Assembly: GCA_028534125.1 (NCBI GenBank)
Contig: CM052816.1
Coordinates: 9,736,001 to 9,800,000, forward strand
Source: Lama glama
Taxonomy: Eukaryota
Direction of reading: 5' to 3'
DNA: 64,000 nt
The notes under the pieces were generated by a model that was given only the letters and a program-made list of their open reading frames with translations, was not told the origin of the DNA and searched no databases. The position numbers and the translations under genes are program-made. Below are positions 8,412-60,035 of the stretch, piece after piece (the first letter of the stretch is position 1; every line of letters starts with the position of its first letter).

Positions 8412-11400
8412 CTATAAAGAAAGAAAGAGACAGAGAAAAAAATTAAAGAGTTTTAAGGAAGAAATAAAGTACATTACATTTAAAGAAATATTACAAAGGA
8501 CATTCATGGAAAAACTGGTCAACTCCGAACAATTCTGTTGGTTCATTAATAGTGACATACCAATGTTAATTTTTTAGTTTTGACAAGTGTGCCAGGGTTC
8601 TACATGGTGTTAACCTTAGAAGAAACTGGATAAAAGACACAAAAACTTGCTACTATCTTTGAAATTTTTCTGTAAATCTTAAATTATTCCGAAATAAAAA
8701 TACTATTTTTAAAAAGGAGAATTTTAAACTCCCAGGATTCTATCACAGAGGAAACTACATTCATTGCCTTAAGTCTGACCATCCATTGCACAGACTGAAC
8801 TCATTTCTATGATGCAAAAATGTAGATAACATGCATGCAGAATATAGTTGGGATTTTTCAGTGTCTAAACACAGAGACACTGGAAACCTTTTCAAAAAGG
8901 AGAATGTGAACGTGGAATAGCATGGAGAGGCTGTGCTCCACTTCCAGAAGCAGCTGGACTCTGCTTGTTCCTAGGGTCTGACACATGTCCTGTCCCCTTG
9001 TGGGGTCACTTGACTCTTCCTACATGCTCAGTCCTGTCTCAGTCTTAGGACCCACCCAGATCTGAGAGTGGAGAGATTGGAGATGGTCTCAGCAGTTCTC
9101 CAGAAACAGATGCCAATTTAAGGGATTAAATGTGCAAAGATTTTGTGAGATGAAACACATATGAGAGAGAATAAGGAGGGAGGTAGGAAGACTGGCTGAA
9201 GCTTTAAACTGCACATTCCTTCAGGATGAAAGAGACAGGAGATGAGATTAGATGGAGGTACTCCACAATGTCCTGCTGTCCAATGTAGATTTGGAGGCTG
9301 TCATGGATTTTGTGAGACAAAGCTGACCATTAGAGGAGTCCCTTTTTAGCATGAATGGCCTTGGTTTTAGTTTCCTTCAGCTAGAAGTCTGCATGGGTCA
9401 ATTACACGGCCACCATAGAGAGCTGTGATTCTGCATCTGGGCTACAGAATTACATTGTGTTGGTTGCTAGCCTGCCATTAGTGACACATAATTAGGTGAA
9501 ATTAATTGATGTACACATTTGTACAATATCAAACAAAGTTATAATGAGAGCTCAAATACAAAATTACTTTCAGAAACAAGAACTTCAGGGAAAGGAACAA
9601 GAGTGGCCTCTAATTTTTTACAGAGGTCTTAGTAATTTTCTATGTATGTTGAGCCTTGGTTATCAGCAACAAGGATTTTCCTATCACTTTGTGATGATTT
9701 CTTCATACCTTGGAGGACCAAATACTTATACTGTGTGCTTATTACATCTTTTCATGACAAAACAGACAGTCATTGTCATAAGTTTTTGCGTTGGTTGCAC
9801 AGAGTGGAACATATTCGCTGGTGCAAGCTCCTGTATATAGTTTACAGTCTGGCTGTTAAACACAGAGAGACAATATAAACTTTCTCAGGGAATGAAAGTC
9901 TCAGTAAAATTTTGCTTAATCTTAATATGAAGGGCCAGACATCAAGATTAGAAAAATACAGTCTATAAGTAGTTTTAAACACTAACACTAAAATTTATAA
10001 AACAGAAATCCCACTTAAAAAATAAAATTTTACCAATGTTTTTATAAACCTGCTGTAATTTTTTAAAGAGATCACAGAACATGTTATTGTAATTTAGTGA
10101 CCACCATCTTCACTTCCGTTTAGATTTTTCTCCTTCCAAACTCAAGAAGAAATCATGAAATGGAATTTTTCTATTTCTCATTCCCTGTCTTGATAATTTC
10201 ACTAAGTCTGTGTGTGTGCATACATATATGCAGCTATAAGTGCAATTTGTTTAATGTTGACAGTACTGGTAATTGACATAAACAATACTTTGTGTACGTT
10301 TACCTCATCTGCTTTTGAAAATTCTTTGTGACTATGTTTATTCAGGAATTTAGAACTGTAGTTTAACTTTTCACCTTTATGTAATATTATACTATGTGGG
10401 TATATAGAAATTATTATATTATCCACCCTTACATGTAGATTTAGATTGATTCTGTTTTCTTTTGTTTTGCTGAGATGAACACTTCTACTGTAAACACCCT
10501 CCACTGTGTCTCAGATGCTTGTATGACACAACACTTATGCCCATTCATTAAATTTTTGTGTAATGGGATATGCACATTTTTATGTTGTCTAGATAATGAC
10601 AAATGGCTTTACATGACTAAGTTTCTATTTTTTTGACTTTAATGTAATACTAACACTTTTTGTTTTTTGAAAGATCTCTCTGTTGTACATTTTTTATGAA
10701 TTTTGCTATTAAAATGTATACTATAGAGGGGAAGGGTATAGCTCAGTGGTAGAGCACATGCTTAGCATGCATGAGGTCCTGGGTTCAATCCCCTGTACAT
10801 CCATTAAAATAAATAAGTAAATAAATAATCCTAATTACCTCCCCCCTCAAAACAAAATATATAATATAGAAAAGTGGTTTAGCTTTTTCAGCGTCCATCA
10901 GGATTAACTTACCGGAAGTTTGAATTCTGATACAGATGCAAAAGAGGTTTCTGCAACCAACACATAGATGGAAAAGTTAAAAATGAAGGCAGAGAAGATG
11001 GGGGAGGGGCAGGGGGAGGAGAAGAAGAGGAAGAAGAAGAAAGAGAGGAGGAGGACACGGAAGGAGGAGGAGGGGAAGGGGAGAAAGGAGGGAGAAGAGG
11101 AGGAAAGGGGGTAGAAGAATCATCTTTAGGAAATACGGCTATTTCTTAGTAGCAGAAACCTATGCAAATTGCTTACTCAAGACCCCCCCCCCAGTAATGA
11201 GGCAAGCCCTTCATGTCATTAGCAAAACAAAACATTCACAAAACAATATCAAATTTGGAAATATTTTTAAATTCCCAATTATTCTAACTCTGTGAAAATA
11301 AATTGTATGTGTTTTTAAAACCCCAACATCCTTCTTTGAAGATGTCACTGTTTTTCTTCCCATTTTTATAGATGAGACATCCTAGACAGATAAGACAATG

Positions 11401-12046
11401 CTTTAGAGCATATCACTTAAATATGAAGGAATCAATTAGTACTTGGTGAGTTAGAACTGTGATCTAAATGTGTGCGTCTGTCTTATAGCCCACAGATGCC
11501 TTATTCTGAAATTCATGGTCTACCTTGAGCTTCGAGAGAGATCACTTTGCCAGATGTGTCAATGTGTTCTCTCCTTAGACAAAACCTTGTCTTAGGGGAC
11601 TCAGAATGGGTGATCAAAAAATCAGAATATGAAGCAATTCCAAACCTAGAAAAAAATCATTCCTCTTCGTAGTTTGCATTTAACAATCTGACCATCAAAA
11701 AGAAAAAAATAATCAGGTAATATTCTTTAGTCATTGATGAACAAAGAGCAAAGTTCTAACCCACTACTCTATCTCCACTTGTCTAAAATGGGAAACGAGG
11801 AAAAGGCATCCTCTGATGCAATGTTAAAAAGGCATTTGTAACATGCCCTTTTTTCACTTAATCAGTTTATGGTCTACAAACCCAATAAAAAACAAGCTCC
11901 TTCATTCCTAGATTACAGAAGTTGTTTCCTGCGTTTTCTAAGATATGGGAAACATTTCACGCAGACTAGAAAACTGACTTACCAGAATAAAGAGGAAATG
12001 CCAAGGCAATGATGAAAATAACTTTGATCCATGATAAGAGGGACAT
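8366..12046 (-). CDS. Secreted single-Kazal-domain protease inhibitor, acrosin inhibitor 1 (BUSI-I)-like, 84 aa; join complement(11983..12046,10913..10950,9746..9852,8366..8411)
   Basis: Spliced ORF MSLLSWIKVIFIIALAFPLYSETSFASVSEFKLPPDCKLYTGACTSEYVPLCATNAKTYDNDCLFCHEKIENNANIDFHHFGVC*. All introns are GT..AG with the SPINK phases 1,0,2. Six Kazal cysteines. Closely resembles bovine BUSI-I as recalled (PPDCKVYTEACTREYNPIC...FNHFGEC). Confidence 0.9.
9095..9450 (-). mobile_element. ERVL LTR (LTR16-like) remnant in intron 3 of the BUSI-I-like gene
   Basis: gttctccagaaacagatgcca...tgtgcaaagattttg...gaccattagaggagtccc resembles the LTR16 family; a similar copy lies at 14517. Confidence 0.5.
9746..9852 (-). 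CDS. BUSI-I-like gene, Kazal exon PDCKLYTGACTSEYVPLCATNAKTYDNDCLFCHEK
   Basis: Acceptor tctctgtgtttaacag; 107 nt (phase 0->2); C-x6-C-x7-C-x10-C-x2-C Kazal pattern; donor GTAATA (weak). Confidence 0.92.
10727..10860 (+). mobile_element. tRNA-Ala-derived SINE (vic-1 type)
   Basis: gggtatagctcagtggtagagcacatgcttagcatgcatgaggtcctgggttcaatcccc plus AT-rich tail. Confidence 0.9.
10913..10950 (-). CDS. BUSI-I-like gene, coding exon 2 (E)TSFASVSEFKLP
   Basis: Acceptor ttggttgcag, donor ccg|GTAAGT, 38 nt, phase 1->0. Confidence 0.85.
10985..11118. repeat. Polypurine (GA/GGA-rich) low-complexity tract
   Basis: ggggaggagaagaagaggaagaagaag... almost entirely purines on the + strand. Confidence 0.8.
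11983..12046 (-). CDS. BUSI-I-like gene, signal-peptide exon MSLLSWIKVIFIIALAFPLYS
   Basis: ATG at 12046 (aaaATGT), donor ctg|GTAAGT, phase 1. Splice acceptor tttctcctacag 10 nt upstream of the ATG. Confidence 0.9.
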
Positions 12047-12092: not shown

Positions 12093-12192
12093 NNNNNNNN
12101 NNNNNNNNNNNNNNNNNNNNNNNNNNNNNNNNNNNNNNNNNNNNNNNNNNNNNNNNNNNNNNNNNNNNNNNNNNNNNNNNNNNNNNNNNNNN
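12093..12192. other. Assembly gap (100 N)
   Basis: Run of N. Confidence 1.
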
Positions 12193-15950: not shown

Positions 15951-16063
15951 GTAGGAGTGATTGAAAAAAAAAAAACGCACTTTGGGGCTGAAAACATGTT
16001 TCTCATTCTTTTTATTTGAAGGACCACAAAACCACAACAGTTCTAAAAAGCACTTATGAAACA

Positions 16064-17700
16064 TTCCTCTGTCTCCTCATTTTGCCTAAGTTGCTGTTTG
16101 TATTTTTATGTATCTGGTAGCTTTCCCAACTTTGGAAAAGTGGCCATCTGTAGGAGAGATGTTCTGTGTCTTCCAGCAGTGCACTCCCCTCTCCTCACCT
16201 ATGTTATATGCTCTAGGGGTTTCTCCATGAAGGCTGCCAGGGTCCTTCTGTGGCGGAGGATTCTGTGGGCGGTCTGTCTGGTAGGCTGGGTTGGCCCTAC
16301 GCTCCGCCTTGCTCGGAGGCTGCCAGGTGCTGCTTCTTCAGGCTGGGTCACGAGGTAATTGAGGTAATTGGCCTCAGGAGGCCGGGGGCTAGTGCTGGCT
16401 CACTGGTGGGCAGAGTCAGGGTCCTGAGGACTCTGGGGGCTGTTGCCCACCTACTGGTGGGTGAAGCTGTTGCAGAAAAACGTGTTATAGCTTAGTGTTA
16501 CAGCTCAGTTGTGATAGCAACCTGGATCTGGGCAAGAGACCAAGCAGCACTCTGAGAGTTTGAGAACTCAGGTTTATTACATACAGCAGGCTCAGGAAAG
16601 TTAACACTCCAAGCTCTGGACCCCGTCTGTAGGTTTACACAGCCTTTTATAGGCTGCCAGTTTACACTTTGTAACATCATATGCAAATAGGGTATAACAA
16701 AAGTTGACTAAAAACAAGCTTTGTAGAAATGGACCAATCAGGAGGGAGAGAAATAACCAATCAGGATTGAGCTCAGGGAACCAACTTAATTTTAAGGGTA
16801 TGTTCCACTTTCCTAGAAGTAAGCCATTTCAGAGGCAAAAAGTGAGATAGAGCCTCTGGGCCAGGGAACGGAATAGTACTGGCAGGAGAGTAGTGGCCCT
16901 GCCAGTCTTTTTATGGGGCTTTCCACCTCAAAGCCAAGTCCCCAGGTTAGCACTGGGCTACTGGCAGGCAGAGCCGGGTCCTGGAATCTGGTCACAGGGC
17001 CAGGATCCGAGAGCTGGTGTCAGACTACCGGTCTTTATAGAGCCCTGGGCATCCAGAAGTTCGTATGGACCTGCTAACGGGCAGGGCTGGGGCCCAGCTG
17101 GTCCCAGGGCAGAGCCTGACCTGCTGTGGGCAGGCTGTGGGACTGCAGCTTGTGAGACTGTGCTTTTCTTTCATCTGGTGTCTGCCTCCGCTCCCCCGCC
17201 CACCCCCGCCCATCTCTTAAAGCTGGTCCAGAGGCTCCACCCAGCTTCCGGCCCAGAGGGATTCTGGGGCTGCTGCCTGCCCACGGGTGGGTGGAGCTGG
17301 GTCTTGGCCCTTCCGGTGGGCGGACTCAGGAGGTCTTTAGGCTTCCTGTATGCTGGTGGGTGGGGACGTAGCCTCATCCAGATAGTTGCTTGGCCTGAGG
17401 CGTCCCAGTACTGGTGCCTCCAGGCTGTTGGGTGGGCCAGGTTCTGGCGCTAATGAGCTAATGGAGAGTTCCACAGTGGCGCCCACCAGCACTGGACCTC
17501 CCAGGAATGGCTGCTGCCGGTGTCGACGTCCCCAGGGTGAGCCCCAGCTGCCCCTTGCCTCGCCCAGAGACGCTCCAAGACCAGCAGGTAGGTCTGGCCC
17601 AGACTCCTATCAAATTATTGCTTTTGCCCTAGGTCCAGGAGCATGGGAAGTTTTATGTGCTTCCTTTAAGTGTGAAGTGTCTGTTTCCCCCAGTTCTGTT
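16064..17700 (-). mobile_element. LINE-1 5'UTR (GC-rich, repeated monomer-like motifs), interrupted by a solo LTR
   Basis: Repeated ctggtgggcagagtcagggtcc / ctggtgggtgaagc / gggtggagctgggtctt motifs typical of the antisense laurasiatherian L1 5'UTR. Confidence 0.7.
16468..16930 (-). mobile_element. Solo ERV1-class LTR (463 bp) with 4-bp TSD AAGC
   Basis: TG...CA termini, AAGC on both sides (16464-67, 16931-34). Minus-strand TATAAAA (~16650) and AATAAA (~16575), two CCAAT boxes (~16735, ~16757). The host L1 motif rejoins across it. Confidence 0.85.
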
Positions 17701-18152
17701 TATATATATAATGGAATATTATTCAGCCATAGAAAGAATGAAATTTTGCCATTTATAGCAACATGGACGGACTTAGACTCTAAGGGCATTATGCTAAGTG
17801 AAATAAGTCAGAGAAAGACAAATACTGTATGATATCACTGATATGTGGAATCTTAAAAAATGCAACAAACTAGTGAATATAACAGAACAGAAACAGACTC
17901 AGAGCAATAGAGAACAAACTTGTGGTTACCAGTGGGGAGTAGGAAAGGGGAAGGTGCAATTTCAGGGTAGGGGACGAAGGGTTTACCAACTATTATGTAT
18001 AAAATAAGCTACAAAGATACACTGTACAACACAGAGAATATAGCCAATGTTTCATAAGTATAAATGGAGTATAACTTTTAAAAATTGTGAATCACAAAAC
18101 AGACACCTGTAACTTATATAGTATTGTGTATCAACTGTACTTCAATTAAATA
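17701..18152 (+). mobile_element. LINE-1 3' end
   Basis: atggaatattattcagccatagaaagaatgaaattttgccattt...gggcattatgctaagtgaaataagtcagag...tcaactgtacttcaattaaa. Confidence 0.9.
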
Positions 18153-18172: not shown

Positions 18173-18672
18173 NNNNNNNNNNNNNNNNNNNNNNNNNNNN
18201 NNNNNNNNNNNNNNNNNNNNNNNNNNNNNNNNNNNNNNNNNNNNNNNNNNNNNNNNNNNNNNNNNNNNNNNNNNNNNNNNNNNNNNNNNNNNNNNNNNNN
18301 NNNNNNNNNNNNNNNNNNNNNNNNNNNNNNNNNNNNNNNNNNNNNNNNNNNNNNNNNNNNNNNNNNNNNNNNNNNNNNNNNNNNNNNNNNNNNNNNNNNN
18401 NNNNNNNNNNNNNNNNNNNNNNNNNNNNNNNNNNNNNNNNNNNNNNNNNNNNNNNNNNNNNNNNNNNNNNNNNNNNNNNNNNNNNNNNNNNNNNNNNNNN
18501 NNNNNNNNNNNNNNNNNNNNNNNNNNNNNNNNNNNNNNNNNNNNNNNNNNNNNNNNNNNNNNNNNNNNNNNNNNNNNNNNNNNNNNNNNNNNNNNNNNNN
18601 NNNNNNNNNNNNNNNNNNNNNNNNNNNNNNNNNNNNNNNNNNNNNNNNNNNNNNNNNNNNNNNNNNNNNNNN
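18173..18672. other. Assembly gap (500 N)
   Basis: Run of N. Confidence 1.
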
Positions 18673-24068: not shown

Positions 24069-24117
24069 ATGGAGGCTTTCATTTTCCTTCCCTTCCTATT
24101 CTTAGCCATATTCTCAG
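24069..24117 (+). CDS. MARCOL: MARCOL exon 1 (signal peptide)
   Basis: aacATGG Kozak context; donor cag|GTAAGA, phase 1. Confidence 0.9.
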
Positions 24118-27100
24118 GTAAGAAAATTTATTCAATGACTTTCCTTCCAACTCTCAAAGAATTAGAAATGTTGAGTGGTTTAGTAATATTCTGTCAGAAA
24201 TGTTAAAACAGGAAGTCTCTATCAAAGAAATGAAAGAACGTCATTTGAGACAATGTAAATACAGACGGAGGTATAATGATCGTGATCAGGTGGTACAACA
24301 GGGAATAGTTTGGTGTGGCTGAAGAGCAGCAGAGACAAAGGAATGGGGAAAGCAGGACATTAGACAGGAAAGAAAATGCAGTCTAAAAGGATGATGAGAA
24401 CAGACCCGGAATAAAGACAGTATGAGATTTGTGCCATACCCGAGTTTGTGTTCCTTAAAGGCTGCGGTTTTGTGTGATGATCCAGGGTCGTGTGGTCAAA
24501 CAGAAATAGGTTCAAATCCTGGCTTTTCAATTTTCTACTTATGTGCTTTTGGGCAGCTTACTTATTTTAACCTTAGTTTTCTCATATGCAAAATGAAAAT
24601 AACTATACATTTCCACAGGTTATTATAGGAATTGTGTGTATGCTAACTCTATGACCATTACCTGAGTTCTTTGTAGGTGCCTCTGATTCAACTTAGTTCT
24701 ATTTCTTACCTCAACACAGTTAGGTTTTCTATTTTCAGAGATGTGAATTTCCAGCTAATGATACAAATTTCTCAAGATAATAAATGATACAGATAATAGA
24801 TTTCTCAAGATGGTAAACTATGATACATGAAACTAATTCCAATTTATCTCCAAATTCTGACCTCCTACTTGAACAGCTTTTTTCTTACACGTACTGAAAG
24901 GAAATAATTAAAGTGCCCACGACCTTCAGCTGCTCATAGTTGGAACACAAGAAATAGTGGTTCTCCTCTCATTGAAATCATTGCAGTTGTTTCAGATTGT
25001 TGAGTACAGAGGTGATCAGACCCACTCTCTTAAGGAATATTAGTCTGCAGCGATACTGAAAATGAATTAGACGTAAGAAAAGTCACACAGAAATGCCACT
25101 TAGGGAGCTGCTGAAGCAGTAGCATTAAGAAATAAGAATAAGTAGGGTGGGTAGAGCTCAGGGTAAAGCAAATGCCTAGCATGCATTATAAAAGGATGGG
25201 CTTCCAAAATAAACATAAGAAGTAGATAGAGTAGACAAGTTATGGAACGTATGTTTTAAGAAACAGTCACATAATATCTATTATGTCCTTGAGTAGTTTT
25301 CTCACAAAAGAGAGAAGCAAACACTGGAGAGTACGATTGACTGATTGATGCTAGGGCCTTTATGAGAAACGGTGGACATAAAATTGATTGGAAAAAAAGA
25401 GTAGGTTCTGAAGAAGAAGGGAAACCACTGCCTTTGGGACGGGGGAAGGCAGAGAGAAGATGGCTACAGAAAGTGTGTATGGAGATACAGAAAGAATGTG
25501 GAAGGAGGGCTCATGCCTGGCAGCTTTCGTGTGTGGAAAGTTGATGATGGCATCTTCTGTAAGGTGAGGCTGACAATGTGGGACAGGGTTCTGTGATGTG
25601 GTGAAAGTTTACAGTGGAAATTAAGCAGAGTCAGCTTGATTAATCAGTAAATCATTAATTATTTGGGATAATATGAAAGCCCAGTTTAAATAATTCAGGC
25701 TCTGATTTAGAAATAGGGCAAGGTGGCTTAACCCCATTATTTTTAGAAGCCATGTAGTACAGTCAAGAAAAAAAAAAGAGGACTCAAAATAATCAGGTTA
25801 TGAGAGGTAATGGGAAGACTCCATCCTGAGGTTTGGTTAAAAAAAATCAAAGAGGCATTAAACACATACTATGTCTTGGGATAAATGCTATTGATTTAAA
25901 ATTCTTGAAGTTAAATAACTTTATCTTTGTGCTTATGGTATCATTGCAGTATCTTCAGCCCAGCCACTGAAAACAAGTGTTTATAAACTAGAAGAGAGTG
26001 GAGAACCTGCACTTATTCTAGAAAGAAAAAATGAAGCTGCCCATCAAGGAGGTCAAATAGAATCTAATAAGCAAAGAGGTAGCAACACACATGGAAAACC
26101 AGGGACATTTAGTCTACAAGGACAGCCAGGGCATTCTAACCAGCCAAAGAAACCAGGGAATTTTAATCAGCAAGGGAGGACAGGAGTTTTCAATCGGCCT
26201 GAGAGTTTGCAAGGGAATTCAGGACAACGTAACCAAAATGAGAATCCAGAAGTTACTAACGAGCAAGGAAAACCAGGATCTTCCAACCAGCAAGGGAAGC
26301 CAGGGTCAGCTAACCAGCAAGGGGGCCCAGGGTCAGCCGGCCAGCAAGGGGGCCCAGGGTCAGCCGGCCAGCAAGGGAAGCCAGGATCTTCTAGCCAGCA
26401 AGGGAAGCCAGGATCTTCTGGCCAGCAAGGGAAGCCAGGATCTTCTGGCCAGCAAGGGAAGCCAGGATCTTCTGGTCAGCAAGGGAAGCCAGGGTCACAT
26501 AGCCAAAAAGGAAAGCCAGGATTATCTAGCCAACAAGGGAAATCAAGGTCTTTCTACAATCAAGAAGAAAGAAAAAATGGAGGCAACCCTTTGCATGGCA
26601 ATATAATGGAGATTCAGGTTAGTGTTAATTTCTGTTTTTTCCCTCAGGAAGCTTACCTCAGCCATTCTATATCCCAAGATTTGAAATAGTAGACTACACT
26701 ATTCTAATGACAAACACATTGTGATAACACTGATATAACAAAGAAGAAATTGCAGGTGGTATTTTTGTACACATTTATAATCATTAATGAGTGTCATGCT
26801 CTTCTATTCCATCTCATTCCCTTCTCTGTTTTCCACTCAGGCCTTTCTATCTATACTGGCCTAGCTCAGTCCCTCAATAATTGGGCCCCCATTCCCACCA
26901 GGTTTACCTTTCATGCCCATTTTCATCCCCTCCATAATGTACAAACCACTCAGGTGGTAGTTCTATGTCACAAATCTAATCTGGTTTATCACTCCCCTGC
27001 TGAAAATTTTTCAGCATTGCCATACTACCCAGGAGTTAAAACCCAAACTCCTGAGCATGGCATTTAAGATTTTTCATGATTGGACCTCATATCCATGACT

Positions 27101-29455
27101 GGACATGTCTGTATCCATTTCATATCACTCTTGCTCACATGCCATCCACAACATAATCTTTTGGTTTACCATGAATGTATTCCTAATATTAATGATATCC
27201 TCTATCATAGAATGTACCTTACTGCTTTGTTACTGTCAATTCAATTAGAGGATGAACTCCTTAAAGTGTCATTTCTTTTCAAACCTGTAACCCCAGATCC
27301 TAGAACAAGACGGGCATATGGTAGGTTCTCTTGATCCGTTTGTTGGATGAGTGAATGAATGCCTGACATTTGAGAGTCATCCTTGCACACCGGTGCACAT
27401 CCATGACTCCTGTATTCCCTTCTGAGTCCTGCTGTGCTTGACCTTTCTTTGCCAGGCTCTCTTTCAAGTGCCAGCTTCCTAATTCTGATCAGCAATTCTG
27501 GACACTCCATTTAGTTGACCCAAAATAGTTTTGGAGAACACTTCCTCCATGTCACCATCTTACTGGAGACTTTGCTTTTTACCTCATAACTTGTCACTCC
27601 TCAATACCCTTCCTAATAAAAGCTGCCCACGCCTCCCTCCTTGTCCCTTGTGTCTTAGCTGGCATGAAGTAGTGATCTCCCGGGACATTCCTGCCATCCA
27701 GACCTGAATGCCACCACCAACAGGTTTCTGAGTGTTTAGATTGTTGCTTAAACTTTTTCAGTTTTATACTCTTTTCTAAAACGGGAGAGAGAACCCTGTC
27801 CATTTCACAGAGTGTGGGTACTATTTAATTGAACTCTGCATAATCCTACCTTCAGCCTCATTTTCTTTCATGGGACCAGAAAAGAGAAAGGGCCAATTAA
27901 TTATGACCATATGTGTTTTGTCTTTTCCAGTATGACTTGCCCCTAATTGTTGTTTCCTCGGGTAGGGGAAAGCTTGTCTACAAAGAATTAAAGTGGAGGC
28001 AGTCTGACATGTAAGAACAGGGGCTTTGGAGTCAGATAACTCATGGTTTGAATCCCAGCTTGGGGAGTTAATCCACATACGGTTTTGGGTTTGTCACTTA
28101 AATGCACTGTATGCCTGAGACAATGCCAGGGGACAAAATATACTCTTCTTTCATATCGCTGCACAGATTAAAAGCTAAAGAGTCACAAAATGATGCAGTA
28201 CAATGCTTTATCAGTAGTTAATGAGCAATAAGTATTTGTTTTATTACAATATCAGAATTAAATTTAGTCCCCTGTATTTACCTAATGGTCTTTCCCATCA
28301 CTGCAGACTGGCAGTACTGGCAATAAGAACCCGACTGGAAACACAAAATGTCAATCTGTCTACGAACCAGTCTGTGGTTCTGATGGAAAAACCTATGGTA
28401 ACCGCTGCGTATTTAACGAAGCAAAAAGGTAAGAGGACTTTATGTTTCTTTGTATTAGGAAGTACTATTCTGATGCAAAGGGAATGAAAGAACATTCTTC
28501 TCTAAGTCTCCATAGTTTCCTCTCAATAGTGCCTTGGGTGTCTGTCCAAAGGAAACATAAAAGCATATTTAACCCTTGAACAGTGAAGTCAGTCATTTCC
28601 TGAGAGACTGTGATATATTCAGCTTCATAAGGAGTGGTAAATTTATTGCTGAGTCATTCACTTACCAAATATTCATTAAACATCTACTTTGCACAGGCAT
28701 TCCGCTAAGCACTAAGGTGGTGAGCCAAACACAGGCTTCCCTGCTTCCTGCTCCCATGCAGCTTCCATCTTTGCAGTGGAAGGCAGCAAAAAAAAAAAAA
28801 AAAAAAAAAAAACAGAGTATGAGAGAATTATGAATCCCAAGGATTACCAAGTGTAGACTACTCAATGACATTTTAAACTTAAATAACAACATTAAATGTT
28901 GGATTTGTTAAGCCATGCAAACCATCGAGAGTTACACCCTGTCTAGAAGAAATAAAATGATGATAAGGCCATTCAAAATTAGACATGTGGCTGAGAAAGA
29001 GCTGGATAGCTCAGCTTTCAAAATGAATAAATGTTTACCTACGAAAGAAGGAATAAGGTAAAAACTATACCCCTCTTGTTTTTGATAGTTTCAGAATTTA
29101 TTAAGTGTTTGGTAAATCATTATTGCAGACTTAAGAAAATGTTAAAGGTAAGTGTCCTCTGTGGCCATAAAAGTTAAAGTCAGAAGGCACATCGGACACC
29201 CATTCTCTCATTTTATAGATAAGGCACCCTGCCCAGGGACAGGAAAGGACTGCCGCAAAGTGCTCACTTGCCCAGAGTGGTCGATGTGAAACAGGCCAGC
29301 CAGGGCCCAGGCCTGCTCTTTCCCTTGTGATTTTTAAATAATCACATTTTCTCTCTGAGTGGTGCCACAATTCTTAGGTCCTTGATTTCTCTCATTATCT
29401 TGTTTTCAGGTTGAGTAAAGGAAAACTGAGTCTGAACCATGAGGGGAAATGCTAA
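24069..29455 (+). CDS. MARCOL: MARCO-like protein with a C-terminal Kazal domain, 294 aa; join(24069..24117,25950..26617,28307..28428,29410..29455)
   Basis: Spliced ORF MEAFIFLPFLFLAIFSVSSAQPLKTSVYKLEESGEPALILERKNEAAHQGGQIESNKQ...(QQGKPGSSG)n...EIQ-TGSTGNKNPTGNTKCQSVYEPVCGSDGKTYGNRCVFNEAKRLSKGKLSLNHEGKC*. 885 nt, GT..AG introns, phases 1,0,2. The N-terminus matches human MARCOL as recalled (MRAFIFFLFMLLAMFS...VFKLEENPKPALILEEKNEA). Confidence 0.9.
25950..26617 (+). CDS. MARCOL: MARCOL exon 2 (Q/G/K/P/S repeat domain)
   Basis: Acceptor tcattgcag; 668-nt open frame that includes ORF 26207..26689; donor cag|GTTAGT, phase 0. Confidence 0.9.
26261..26557 (+). repeat. Coding 27-bp tandem repeat (11 units, consensus QQGKPGSSG), with more degenerate units upstream to ~26087
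   Basis: cagcaagggaagccaggatcttctggc repeated near-perfectly in the centre of the array. Confidence 0.95.
28307..28428 (+). CDS. MARCOL: MARCOL exon 3 (Kazal core)
   Basis: Acceptor tttcccatcactgcag; CQSVYEPVCGSDGKTYGNRC is a canonical Kazal motif; donor aag|GTAAGA, phase 2. Confidence 0.92.
29410..29455 (+). CDS. MARCOL: MARCOL exon 4 (R)LSKGKLSLNHEGKC*
   Basis: Acceptor tcttgttttcag; 46 nt ending TGC TAA; typical Kazal C-terminus HEGKC. Confidence 0.92.
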
Positions 29456-29612
29456 GCATTTTACAGCAACCAAATCACCTGGAGCCTAAGAATCCACTTT
29501 CAGTTCTTTTCAAACGGTGGCTTTCCCTGGGAGTTCTACTGAGTGAGGCCAGCATGAGTCTGACAGATATCATGGATGGATCCTACATTATTTTCTAGCT
29601 TTTCTCACTGCA

Positions 29613-29618
29613 AATAAA
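29613..29618 (+). terminator. Polyadenylation signal of MARCOL
   Basis: AATAAA 158 nt after the stop codon, followed by a T-rich segment. Confidence 0.7.
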
Positions 29619-35420: not shown

Positions 35421-35920
35421 NNNNNNNNNNNNNNNNNNNNNNNNNNNNNNNNNNNNNNNNNNNNNNNNNNNNNNNNNNNNNNNNNNNNNNNNNNNNNNNN
35501 NNNNNNNNNNNNNNNNNNNNNNNNNNNNNNNNNNNNNNNNNNNNNNNNNNNNNNNNNNNNNNNNNNNNNNNNNNNNNNNNNNNNNNNNNNNNNNNNNNNN
35601 NNNNNNNNNNNNNNNNNNNNNNNNNNNNNNNNNNNNNNNNNNNNNNNNNNNNNNNNNNNNNNNNNNNNNNNNNNNNNNNNNNNNNNNNNNNNNNNNNNNN
35701 NNNNNNNNNNNNNNNNNNNNNNNNNNNNNNNNNNNNNNNNNNNNNNNNNNNNNNNNNNNNNNNNNNNNNNNNNNNNNNNNNNNNNNNNNNNNNNNNNNNN
35801 NNNNNNNNNNNNNNNNNNNNNNNNNNNNNNNNNNNNNNNNNNNNNNNNNNNNNNNNNNNNNNNNNNNNNNNNNNNNNNNNNNNNNNNNNNNNNNNNNNNN
35901 NNNNNNNNNNNNNNNNNNNN
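35421..35920. other. Assembly gap (500 N)
   Basis: Run of N. Confidence 1.
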
Positions 35921-59535: not shown

Positions 59536-60035
59536 NNNNNNNNNNNNNNNNNNNNNNNNNNNNNNNNNNNNNNNNNNNNNNNNNNNNNNNNNNNNNNNNN
59601 NNNNNNNNNNNNNNNNNNNNNNNNNNNNNNNNNNNNNNNNNNNNNNNNNNNNNNNNNNNNNNNNNNNNNNNNNNNNNNNNNNNNNNNNNNNNNNNNNNNN
59701 NNNNNNNNNNNNNNNNNNNNNNNNNNNNNNNNNNNNNNNNNNNNNNNNNNNNNNNNNNNNNNNNNNNNNNNNNNNNNNNNNNNNNNNNNNNNNNNNNNNN
59801 NNNNNNNNNNNNNNNNNNNNNNNNNNNNNNNNNNNNNNNNNNNNNNNNNNNNNNNNNNNNNNNNNNNNNNNNNNNNNNNNNNNNNNNNNNNNNNNNNNNN
59901 NNNNNNNNNNNNNNNNNNNNNNNNNNNNNNNNNNNNNNNNNNNNNNNNNNNNNNNNNNNNNNNNNNNNNNNNNNNNNNNNNNNNNNNNNNNNNNNNNNNN
60001 NNNNNNNNNNNNNNNNNNNNNNNNNNNNNNNNNNN
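59536..60035. other. Assembly gap (500 N), probably spurious
   Basis: 111 bp identical on both sides (59425-59535 = 60036-60146). Confidence 0.9.

Follow-up and report, generated by a model that had tools for sequence, protein, structure and literature searches.

The MARCOL gene, which lies on the + strand of a 64-kb stretch of Lama glama DNA (the window, in whose coordinates positions are given unless a contig is named), raises the question of what kind of protein it encodes: its MARCO-like name points to macrophage scavenger receptors although the gene itself is a SPINK paralogue. Joined across GT/AG borders, the four MARCOL exons gave an 885-nucleotide (nt) frame for a protein of 294 amino acids, in which a predicted signal peptide is followed by a long repeat spacer and a C-terminal Kazal domain (Table 1). 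The mature protein is basic, with an isoelectric point (pI) of 9.9. Translation would start at the ATG at 24069, with an A at -3 and a G at +4, and the N-terminus encoded by exon 1 could be aligned with the N-termini of orthologues. Exon 2 contributes the end of the signal peptide and a basic spacer of ~220 residues dominated by Gln, Gly, Ser, Pro, and Lys; its frame (25919-26689, 256 codons) was the longest stop-free frame of the window once frames caused by N blocks had been excluded. The Kazal domain is divided between exons 3 and 4, with Cys254, the P1 residue Ser256, Cys262, Asn271, and Cys273 encoded by exon 3, and the C-terminal peptide encoded by exon 4 was the same in 11 orthologues, including that of platypus. 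An earlier interpretation of this DNA made from the letters alone (the sequence-only reading) had proposed these exons together with their splice sites, stop codon, and polyadenylation signal, and all of its coordinates were exact on re-reading. It had also placed an intronic stop at 26689, which was confirmed as a TAG at 26687-26689 that would be reached after 23 additional residues if the donor at 26617 were read through.

That the protein carries a Kazal domain was evident from exon 3 alone, which matched the Pfam models Kazal_1 (PF00050; 39.4 bits against a cut-off of 21, E = 6.3e-10) and Kazal_2 (PF07648; 36.5 bits against a cut-off of 22.8, E = 5.2e-9). Both models also matched all 11 complete orthologues, so the intact Kazal domain claimed from the letters was found again by the Pfam scan and proved to be conserved. 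The pattern of six cysteines bridged 1-5, 2-4, and 3-6 was not what we observed, as only four are present in the MARCOL domain: other residues stand in place of C1 and C5, and C2, C3, C4, and C6 are invariant. It is consequently an atypical and not a classical Kazal domain, predicted to have lost the C1-C5 disulfide with the cysteines for the C2-C4 and C3-C6 bridges retained. Of nine single-Kazal exons that were read in the cluster, MARCOL's was the only one with this loss, the other eight keeping both cysteines. At the sequence level the reactive loop, C-x-S-[IVK]-Y-[KE]-P-V-C, aligned with the ovomucoid loop and was, together with the Asn before C4, invariant or nearly so. Position P1 was Ser in 19 of 22 sequences, the exceptions being sheep and serow, which have Pro, and platypus, which has Ala; P2 was variable (Gln, His, Leu, Pro, Glu, or Asp). 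When the reindeer orthologue was compared with solved structures, alignments spanning the whole domain were obtained for the ovomucoid third domain (E ~1e-10), SPINK6 (1.2e-9), SPINK7 (1.6e-6), and the insect inhibitor GmSPI-2 (1.7e-5); the ovomucoid alignment placed Ser at P1 and showed that the orthologue lacks both cysteines of the first bridge. A search of representative proteins with the platypus protein returned 4225 matches at E ≤ 0.001, the 150 best of which were mostly multi-Kazal proteins, a composition that is no measure of how frequent the four-cysteine form is.

The identity of the gene and its conservation were assessed by searching a collection of 5.8 billion proteins. With the exon 2 product we obtained 27 homologues at E ≤ 0.001, and the best of these were named MARCO-like (E down to 4e-72), in agreement with the identification as MARCOL in the sequence-only reading. 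Most named relatives carried the MARCO-like name and were 37-67% identical, among them proteins from dog, hyena, bats, ferret, mink, lynx, beaver, voles, and hedgehog; the horse relative was labelled as a Kazal-like domain-containing protein, and that of reindeer was an unnamed product. Precomputed Kazal Pfam domains were already present on 15 of the 27. Searching with exon 3 added muntjac, red deer, serow, sheep, and polar bear, as well as a platypus relative of 127 residues that has the same Kazal domain and a spacer of only ~60 residues. Primate proteins were absent both from the 27 matches of the exon 2 search and from the 24 matches of the exon 3 search. Repeat and complete Kazal domain occurred together in 11 of 21 named orthologue models, platypus included. 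When MARCOL was compared with these 11 complete orthologues, the Kazal part was 68-90% identical and the rest of the protein 35-76%, with Kazal identity exceeding that of the remainder in 10 of the 11 comparisons and equalling it in one; such a pattern would be expected if exons 3 and 4 were under purifying selection in this frame. From platypus to placentals there was no change in the four cysteines, in P-V-C-G-S-D-G and T-Y, in the Asn that precedes the third Cys, or in F-x-E-A-K and the final G-K-C. In the genome the exon 2 product had no second copy, and MARCOL is thus present here as an intact single-copy orthologue of a gene conserved across mammals.

The spacer is built around a tandem array that encodes the nonapeptide Q-Q-G-K-P-G-S-S-[G/S/N]. 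It has a pI of 10.1 and a grand average of hydropathy (GRAVY) of -1.5, is rich in Gly, Gln, Ser, Pro, and Lys, and contains no N-glycosylation sequon. The nonapeptide is in Gly-X-Y register, and in MARCOL here 11 and 8 triplets follow one another without interruption; the exon 2 product was recognized by the Pfam Collagen model (E = 3.5e-10; 39.9 bits, with the cut-off at 27.2). Searching the ESM Atlas for the exon 2 product gave no usable match, and Pfam detected no SRCR, transmembrane, or trimerization domain in the MARCOL exons or in the 11 orthologues. In the AlphaFold model of the reindeer orthologue the spacer had no secondary structure and a predicted local distance difference test score (pLDDT) below 50, which is weak evidence of disorder because the underlying alignment was shallow (11 sequences); the spacer is probably disordered. 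Between the repeat and the Kazal domain lies a further motif, S-F-Y-N-Q-E-E-R-K-N (26549-26578, + strand; residues 217-226), which is kept here and in 9 of 10 complete therian orthologues and absent in platypus. With its Tyr beside acidic residues and a dibasic pair following, this motif could be a sulfation or processing site.

The position of the gene agreed with its domain content. The window belongs to the largest contig of a 2.35-Gb assembly and sits inside a ~0.4-Mb cluster of Kazal exons, which flank it on both sides on the same contig (9.66-10.05 Mb). A multi-domain gene of the SPINK5 type is located at contig positions 9837933-9875350, ~38 kb past the window end. Within the window, searches with the Kazal_1 and Kazal_2 profiles found two Kazal exons and no more, that of MARCOL and that of a neighbouring SPINK gene on the opposite strand (9746-12046). 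The exon phases of MARCOL, 1, 0, and 2, were identical in exons 1-3 of this neighbour, whose exon 2 was the only candidate for that position, and the same phases are found in human SPINK1. The sequence-only reading had proposed that MARCOL follows a SPINK four-exon plan shared with two neighbours having an exon 2 of 38 and 23 nt; this held for MARCOL and for the 38-nt exon 2 of one neighbour, and the neighbour with a 23-nt exon 2 was not found in the profile searches of the window. The 38-nt exon 2 of the neighbour and the equal phases confirm the view that growth in MARCOL took place in exon 2, and the ~60-residue spacer of platypus fits such growth. On the basis of its position, its exon plan, and its most conserved domain, we conclude that MARCOL is a divergent SPINK paralogue that has been kept since before the monotreme split.

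Table 1. Features of MARCOL and of the neighbouring SPINK gene (window coordinates).
Feature	Position	Strand	Details
Candidate TATA box, TATATAA	23966..23972	+	~100 nt 5' of the ATG; sequence reading only
MARCOL exon 1, coding part	24069..24117	+	49 nt; most of the signal peptide; phase-1 donor GTAAGA
MARCOL exon 2	25950..26617	+	668 nt; acceptor ...ttgcag; phase-0 donor CAG/GTTAGT
Tandem array in exon 2	26262..26541	+	27-nt period, 10.4 copies, 85% matches, 0 indels (Tandem Repeats Finder, TRF); residues 121-213
MARCOL intron 2	26618..28306	+	Between the repeat exon and the Kazal exon
MARCOL exon 3	28307..28428	+	122 nt; 14-residue lead-in and Kazal core; phase-2 donor AAG/GTAAGA
MARCOL exon 4, coding part	29410..29455	+	Last 14 Kazal residues, final Cys294, TAA
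Polyadenylation signal, AATAAA	29613..29618	+	Sequence reading
Neighbour SPINK gene, exon 1	12046-11983	-	64 nt; signal peptide
Neighbour SPINK gene, exon 2	10950-10913	-	38 nt; unique candidate
Neighbour SPINK gene, exon 3	9852-9746	-	107 nt; Kazal

Some features of the surroundings were recorded in addition. The neighbouring gene is a classical six-cysteine SPINK with the reactive loop C-T-S-E-Y, and hence likewise has Ser at P1. In seven further single-Kazal exons of the cluster (contig positions 9660000-10050890) the C1 and C5 cysteines were all kept. One of these seven, at contig position 9816954 (- strand), has the core C-G-S-D-G-x-x-Y-G-N-K-C, which by eye is the closest to that of MARCOL, and another, at contig position 10050663 (+ strand), has Lys at P1, as in pancreatic-type inhibitors. 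Elsewhere in the window, a GC-rich stretch at 16001-18000 (GC 0.51, with ~0.36 around it) contains open frames at 16851-17453 (200 codons) and 17386-17832 (148 codons), for which neither a Pfam match nor a tandem repeat was found. Five N blocks, 2100 bases in all (2113-2612, 12093-12192, 18173-18672, 35421-35920, and 59536-60035), give rise to long but spurious open frames, in each of the six reading frames.

RNA evidence was taken from the contigs of four runs from four studies, which derive from a relative that is ~2-3% diverged. Of the two downstream junctions predicted by the sequence-only reading, that between exons 3 and 4 (28428/29410) was seen in one of the four runs, in a single contig that skips 981 nt with GT..AG borders and has a shorter side of 27 nt; this RNA result supports the use of exon 4. 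The run in question is recorded as RNA-seq from a sample of the reproductive system, and its label, "reproductive system metagenome", comes from one study and is no evidence of tissue specificity. The other predicted junction, 26617/28307, was found in none of the four. In all four runs the cover of introns was about equal to that of exons, introns 1 and 3 being represented along with the 5' flank, and the runs must therefore consist of DNA or unspliced RNA and are unable to decide the question of splicing. Since the contigs come from a relative and extend over introns as well, uncovered parts prove nothing; contigs moreover drop rare transcript forms. Within intron 2, at 27813-27817, the relative carried 233 extra letters in two runs, an indel between species that is possibly a mobile element.

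How, then, might such a protein work? The reading that we prefer, and to which we assign a probability of about 0.5, is that MARCOL is a secreted Kazal inhibitor with a small P1 residue, displayed on a long, flexible, cationic arm. The core of this arm would have arisen through repeated tandem duplication of a 27-nt unit within exon 2, which is normally very short in SPINK genes, and the signal peptide would direct the 294-residue protein to secretion. The Kazal head could then act as a standard-mechanism serine-protease inhibitor, as its loop geometry appears to be kept (P2' Tyr, a Pro-Val-Cys-Gly-Ser-Asp-Gly core, and a bracing Asn). Its small P1 would suit elastase-like or subtilisin-like enzymes and not trypsin-like ones, and the cationic arm may hold the head at a surface or in a secretion, for instance in mucus, in reproductive-tract fluid, or at a stratified epithelium. 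Several observations weigh against this proposal. The loss of a disulfide, together with a P1 that is Ser, Pro (sheep, serow), or Ala (platypus), may leave the domain weakly inhibitory or inactive. For the reindeer orthologue the AlphaFold model had a mean pLDDT of 37, and its Kazal part reached 57-70 and contained no helix, in a prediction from the same shallow 11-sequence alignment as noted for the spacer. Of the 21 named orthologue models, 10 take another 3' end after exon 3 and lack the last Cys, and in three additional ones, those of rabbit, Chinese hamster, and pangolin, the exon 2 donor is read through and the product is repeat-only. On the RNA side, besides the missing exon 2/3 junction, the very run with the exon 3/4 junction also contained a contig that is unspliced over 26477-28429, running out of exon 2 across intron 2 as far as the end of exon 3. 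With regard to the deviating models, one alternative C-terminal peptide 3' of exon 3 was common to carnivore models, a second to deer models, and a third to those of sheep and serow (models P0002, P0014, P0039, and P0034-P0037); these shared C-termini could reflect a prediction error that recurs, or else alternative last exons specific to each lineage.

Other readings of the same data have to be weighed against the secreted inhibitor. The Kazal module may no longer inhibit and may now serve as a binding module, as Kazal-like domains without inhibitory activity do in other extracellular proteins, which would make MARCOL a structural or adhesive component of a secretion. The absence of the C1-C5 bridge, seen in MARCOL alone among the nine single-Kazal exons read, would fit such a change of role, none of the P1 residues Ser, Pro, or Ala fits trypsin-like targets, and the Kazal-type domains of agrin and follistatin also matched the orthologue. 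We nevertheless regard this as unlikely, given that the bracing Asn, the P2' Tyr, and the surroundings of the reactive site are invariant or nearly so, and that a four-cysteine Kazal protein without the same bridge is a potent inhibitor according to passages of PMC4169406. A loss of the Kazal head altogether is very doubtful. In that case the main product here would be repeat-only, the donor at 26617 being read through to the stop and the Kazal exons being untranslated or vestigial. The unspliced contig, the failure to find the 26617/28307 junction in any of the runs, and the three repeat-only models would all fit. However, exons 3 and 4 are intact, have consensus splice sites, and encode the most conserved part of the protein across mammals, whereas the read-through tails vary among species in length and sequence in the manner of intron sequence; and the RNA runs, with their cover of the 5' flank and of introns 1 and 3, must contain unspliced RNA or DNA, and their contigs lose rare forms. 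A signal-peptide exon within intron 2 would make the Kazal exons a separate gene; scanning intron 2 for one gave a sole candidate, at 27171, which has poor donors, in a scan whose control missed the real exon 1.

The arm, too, can be interpreted in other ways. By analogy with trappins, the Gln/Lys repeat might be a transglutaminase substrate domain that fixes the Kazal head covalently to matrix, coagulum, or cornified envelope, a convergent arrangement that we consider rather unlikely. Its attraction is that a unit usually offers two Gln and one Lys: with a strict pattern that misses some units, we counted 10 units here and 84 in 18 other species, and Lys was present in 8 of the 10 and in 53 of the 84. 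The order of signal peptide, short Gln/Lys repeats in variable number, and small disulfide-rich inhibitor also parallels that of trappins (as described in parts of PMC2831891), and MARCOL adjoins SPINK genes that include the multi-domain SPINK5-like one. Tissue transglutaminase (TG2) leaves Gln in Q-P or Q-x-x-P unused and prefers Q-x-P, according to passages of PMC2193762. In Q-Q-G-K-P the second Gln falls in Q-x-x-P, and in the Q-P-G-K-P units that are common in reindeer, bats, and rabbit the Gln falls in Q-P, so that by the same passages (PMC2193762) neither would be targeted by TG2; the favoured Q-x-P context is absent from the MARCOL repeat, under a rule that covers TG2 only. Moreover, the unit Lys is nearly lost in mustelids, where position 4 is Lys in 1 of 12 units from ferret and mink and otherwise His, Tyr, Cys, or Thr, and it is in the minority in lynx and hyena (3 of 10). 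These two sequence points would weigh mildly against a transglutaminase tether, and the unit bears no likeness to the trappin hexapeptide. A collagen triple helix, trimerizing the protein so as to present three Kazal heads, is the role that the MARCO-like name implies for the repeat; we rate it as highly improbable. The score above the Pfam cut-off, the Gly-X-Y register kept by the nine-residue unit, and its longer triplet runs would fit a helix, and the Collagen model matched 6 of the 11 complete orthologues at E ≤ 0.001. But unit position 9, which opens each third triplet, was Gly in no more than 5 of the 10 units here and 11 of the 84 from the 18 other species, where Ser took its place in 58 of the 84; this helix-defining Gly is therefore not conserved. 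There is only one Pro per nine residues, the Pfam searches revealed no domain for trimerization or membrane anchoring and no SRCR domain, and the monomeric AlphaFold model of the reindeer orthologue showed no structure in the repeat. The boldest proposal, and one that we put forward with considerable reserve, is that MARCOL is the Kazal counterpart of the trappins: a two-disulfide, small-P1 inhibitor head with an expandable Gln/Lys arm that would fix it in a reproductive or epithelial secretion through a non-TG2 transglutaminase or through self-assembly, the repeat number being a fast-evolving adaptive trait.

A search of the literature found no paper linking MARCOL to Kazal domains, and none of 20 papers naming three or more genes of the SPINK cluster, nor the SPINK reviews among the matches listed, contained the word MARCOL. 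Only two papers contained both MARCOL and Kazal, and this was coincidental as judged from the titles and from passages of one of them, PMC11667162, a table of differential expression that includes human MARCOL and SPINK6. Matches for "MARCOL" alone mostly concerned a mineral oil and an author name, and none of the papers listed under "MARCO-like" was on this gene by its title. The architecture of repeat plus Kazal is not new, since it is already present in automated gene models and visible in public ones, and our claim to discovery is correspondingly modest. Lists of the SPINK family usually run from SPINK1 to SPINK14, and the MARCOL name directs attention to scavenger receptors instead. Many public MARCOL models appear to end wrongly, 10 of 21 without exon 4 and three by reading through exon 2, and these could be corrected. 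The gene would furthermore be a clean example of a tiny exon that grew about twentyfold by 27-nt tandem duplication with its phase kept. SPINK5, 6, 7, and 9 act in tissues that MARCOL might share; if its Kazal head is active, one more secreted inhibitor might have to be reckoned with in these tissues or in reproductive fluids, with atypical disulfides and a small P1.

Comparison with known systems places MARCOL closest to the SPINK and ovomucoid-third-domain inhibitors, among which SPINK6 (PDB 2n52) is the nearest human relative with a solved structure. It shares with them an alignment over the whole Kazal core, membership of the same cluster, the four-exon plan with phases 1, 0, and 2 as in the neighbouring gene, and a signal peptide divided over exons 1 and 2; it differs in having four cysteines instead of six, an exon 2 of 668 nt where the neighbour has 38 nt, and Ser at P1. 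With MARCO and the collagenous scavenger receptors it has in common a collagen-like stretch recognized by Pfam. However, MARCOL lacks a transmembrane, SRCR, or coiled-coil domain, it ends in a Kazal domain, and its triplet register is broken at each third triplet in most species; the MARCO-like name therefore reflects composition and not kinship. Kazal domains with two disulfides are known from LEKTI, in which Cys3 and Cys6 are the missing pair. The same C3-C6 bridge is missing from Phytophthora EPI1, a working Kazal domain with two bridges according to PMC1236909, so that EPI1 and MARCOL are both two-bridge Kazal proteins but differ in the bridge that was lost, C1-C5 in MARCOL.

For the arm, the closest parallel is trappin-2/pre-elafin (PI3), in which, as described in parts of PMC2831891, N-terminal Gln/Lys repeats of species-variable number likewise precede one small disulfide-rich domain. 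The inhibitor domain is WAP in trappin and Kazal in MARCOL, for which Pfam gives Kazal and Collagen only, and the repeat is the hexapeptide KGQDPV in trappin (PMC2831891, in part) and the nonapeptide Q-Q-G-K-P-G-S-S-x in MARCOL. The trappin gene has three exons, with repeats and inhibitor in one of them, whereas MARCOL has four and keeps the two parts separate. Cross-linking has been demonstrated for trappin, as reported in PMC3110255; for MARCOL it could be proposed by analogy alone. The head, finally, has its best counterpart in the silk proteinase inhibitor 2 of Galleria mellonella, GmSPI-2 (PDB 2m5x / 4hgu). This is an insect protein of 36 residues without a spacer, a non-classical Kazal with other loop lengths, and it is not an orthologue. 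Both proteins have four cysteines, however, and the disulfides of GmSPI-2 match C2-C4 and C3-C6 (parts of PMC4169406). As GmSPI-2, with its four cysteines and two bridges, strongly inhibits subtilisin and proteinase K according to the same passages, the loss of the C1-C5 bridge need not abolish inhibition.

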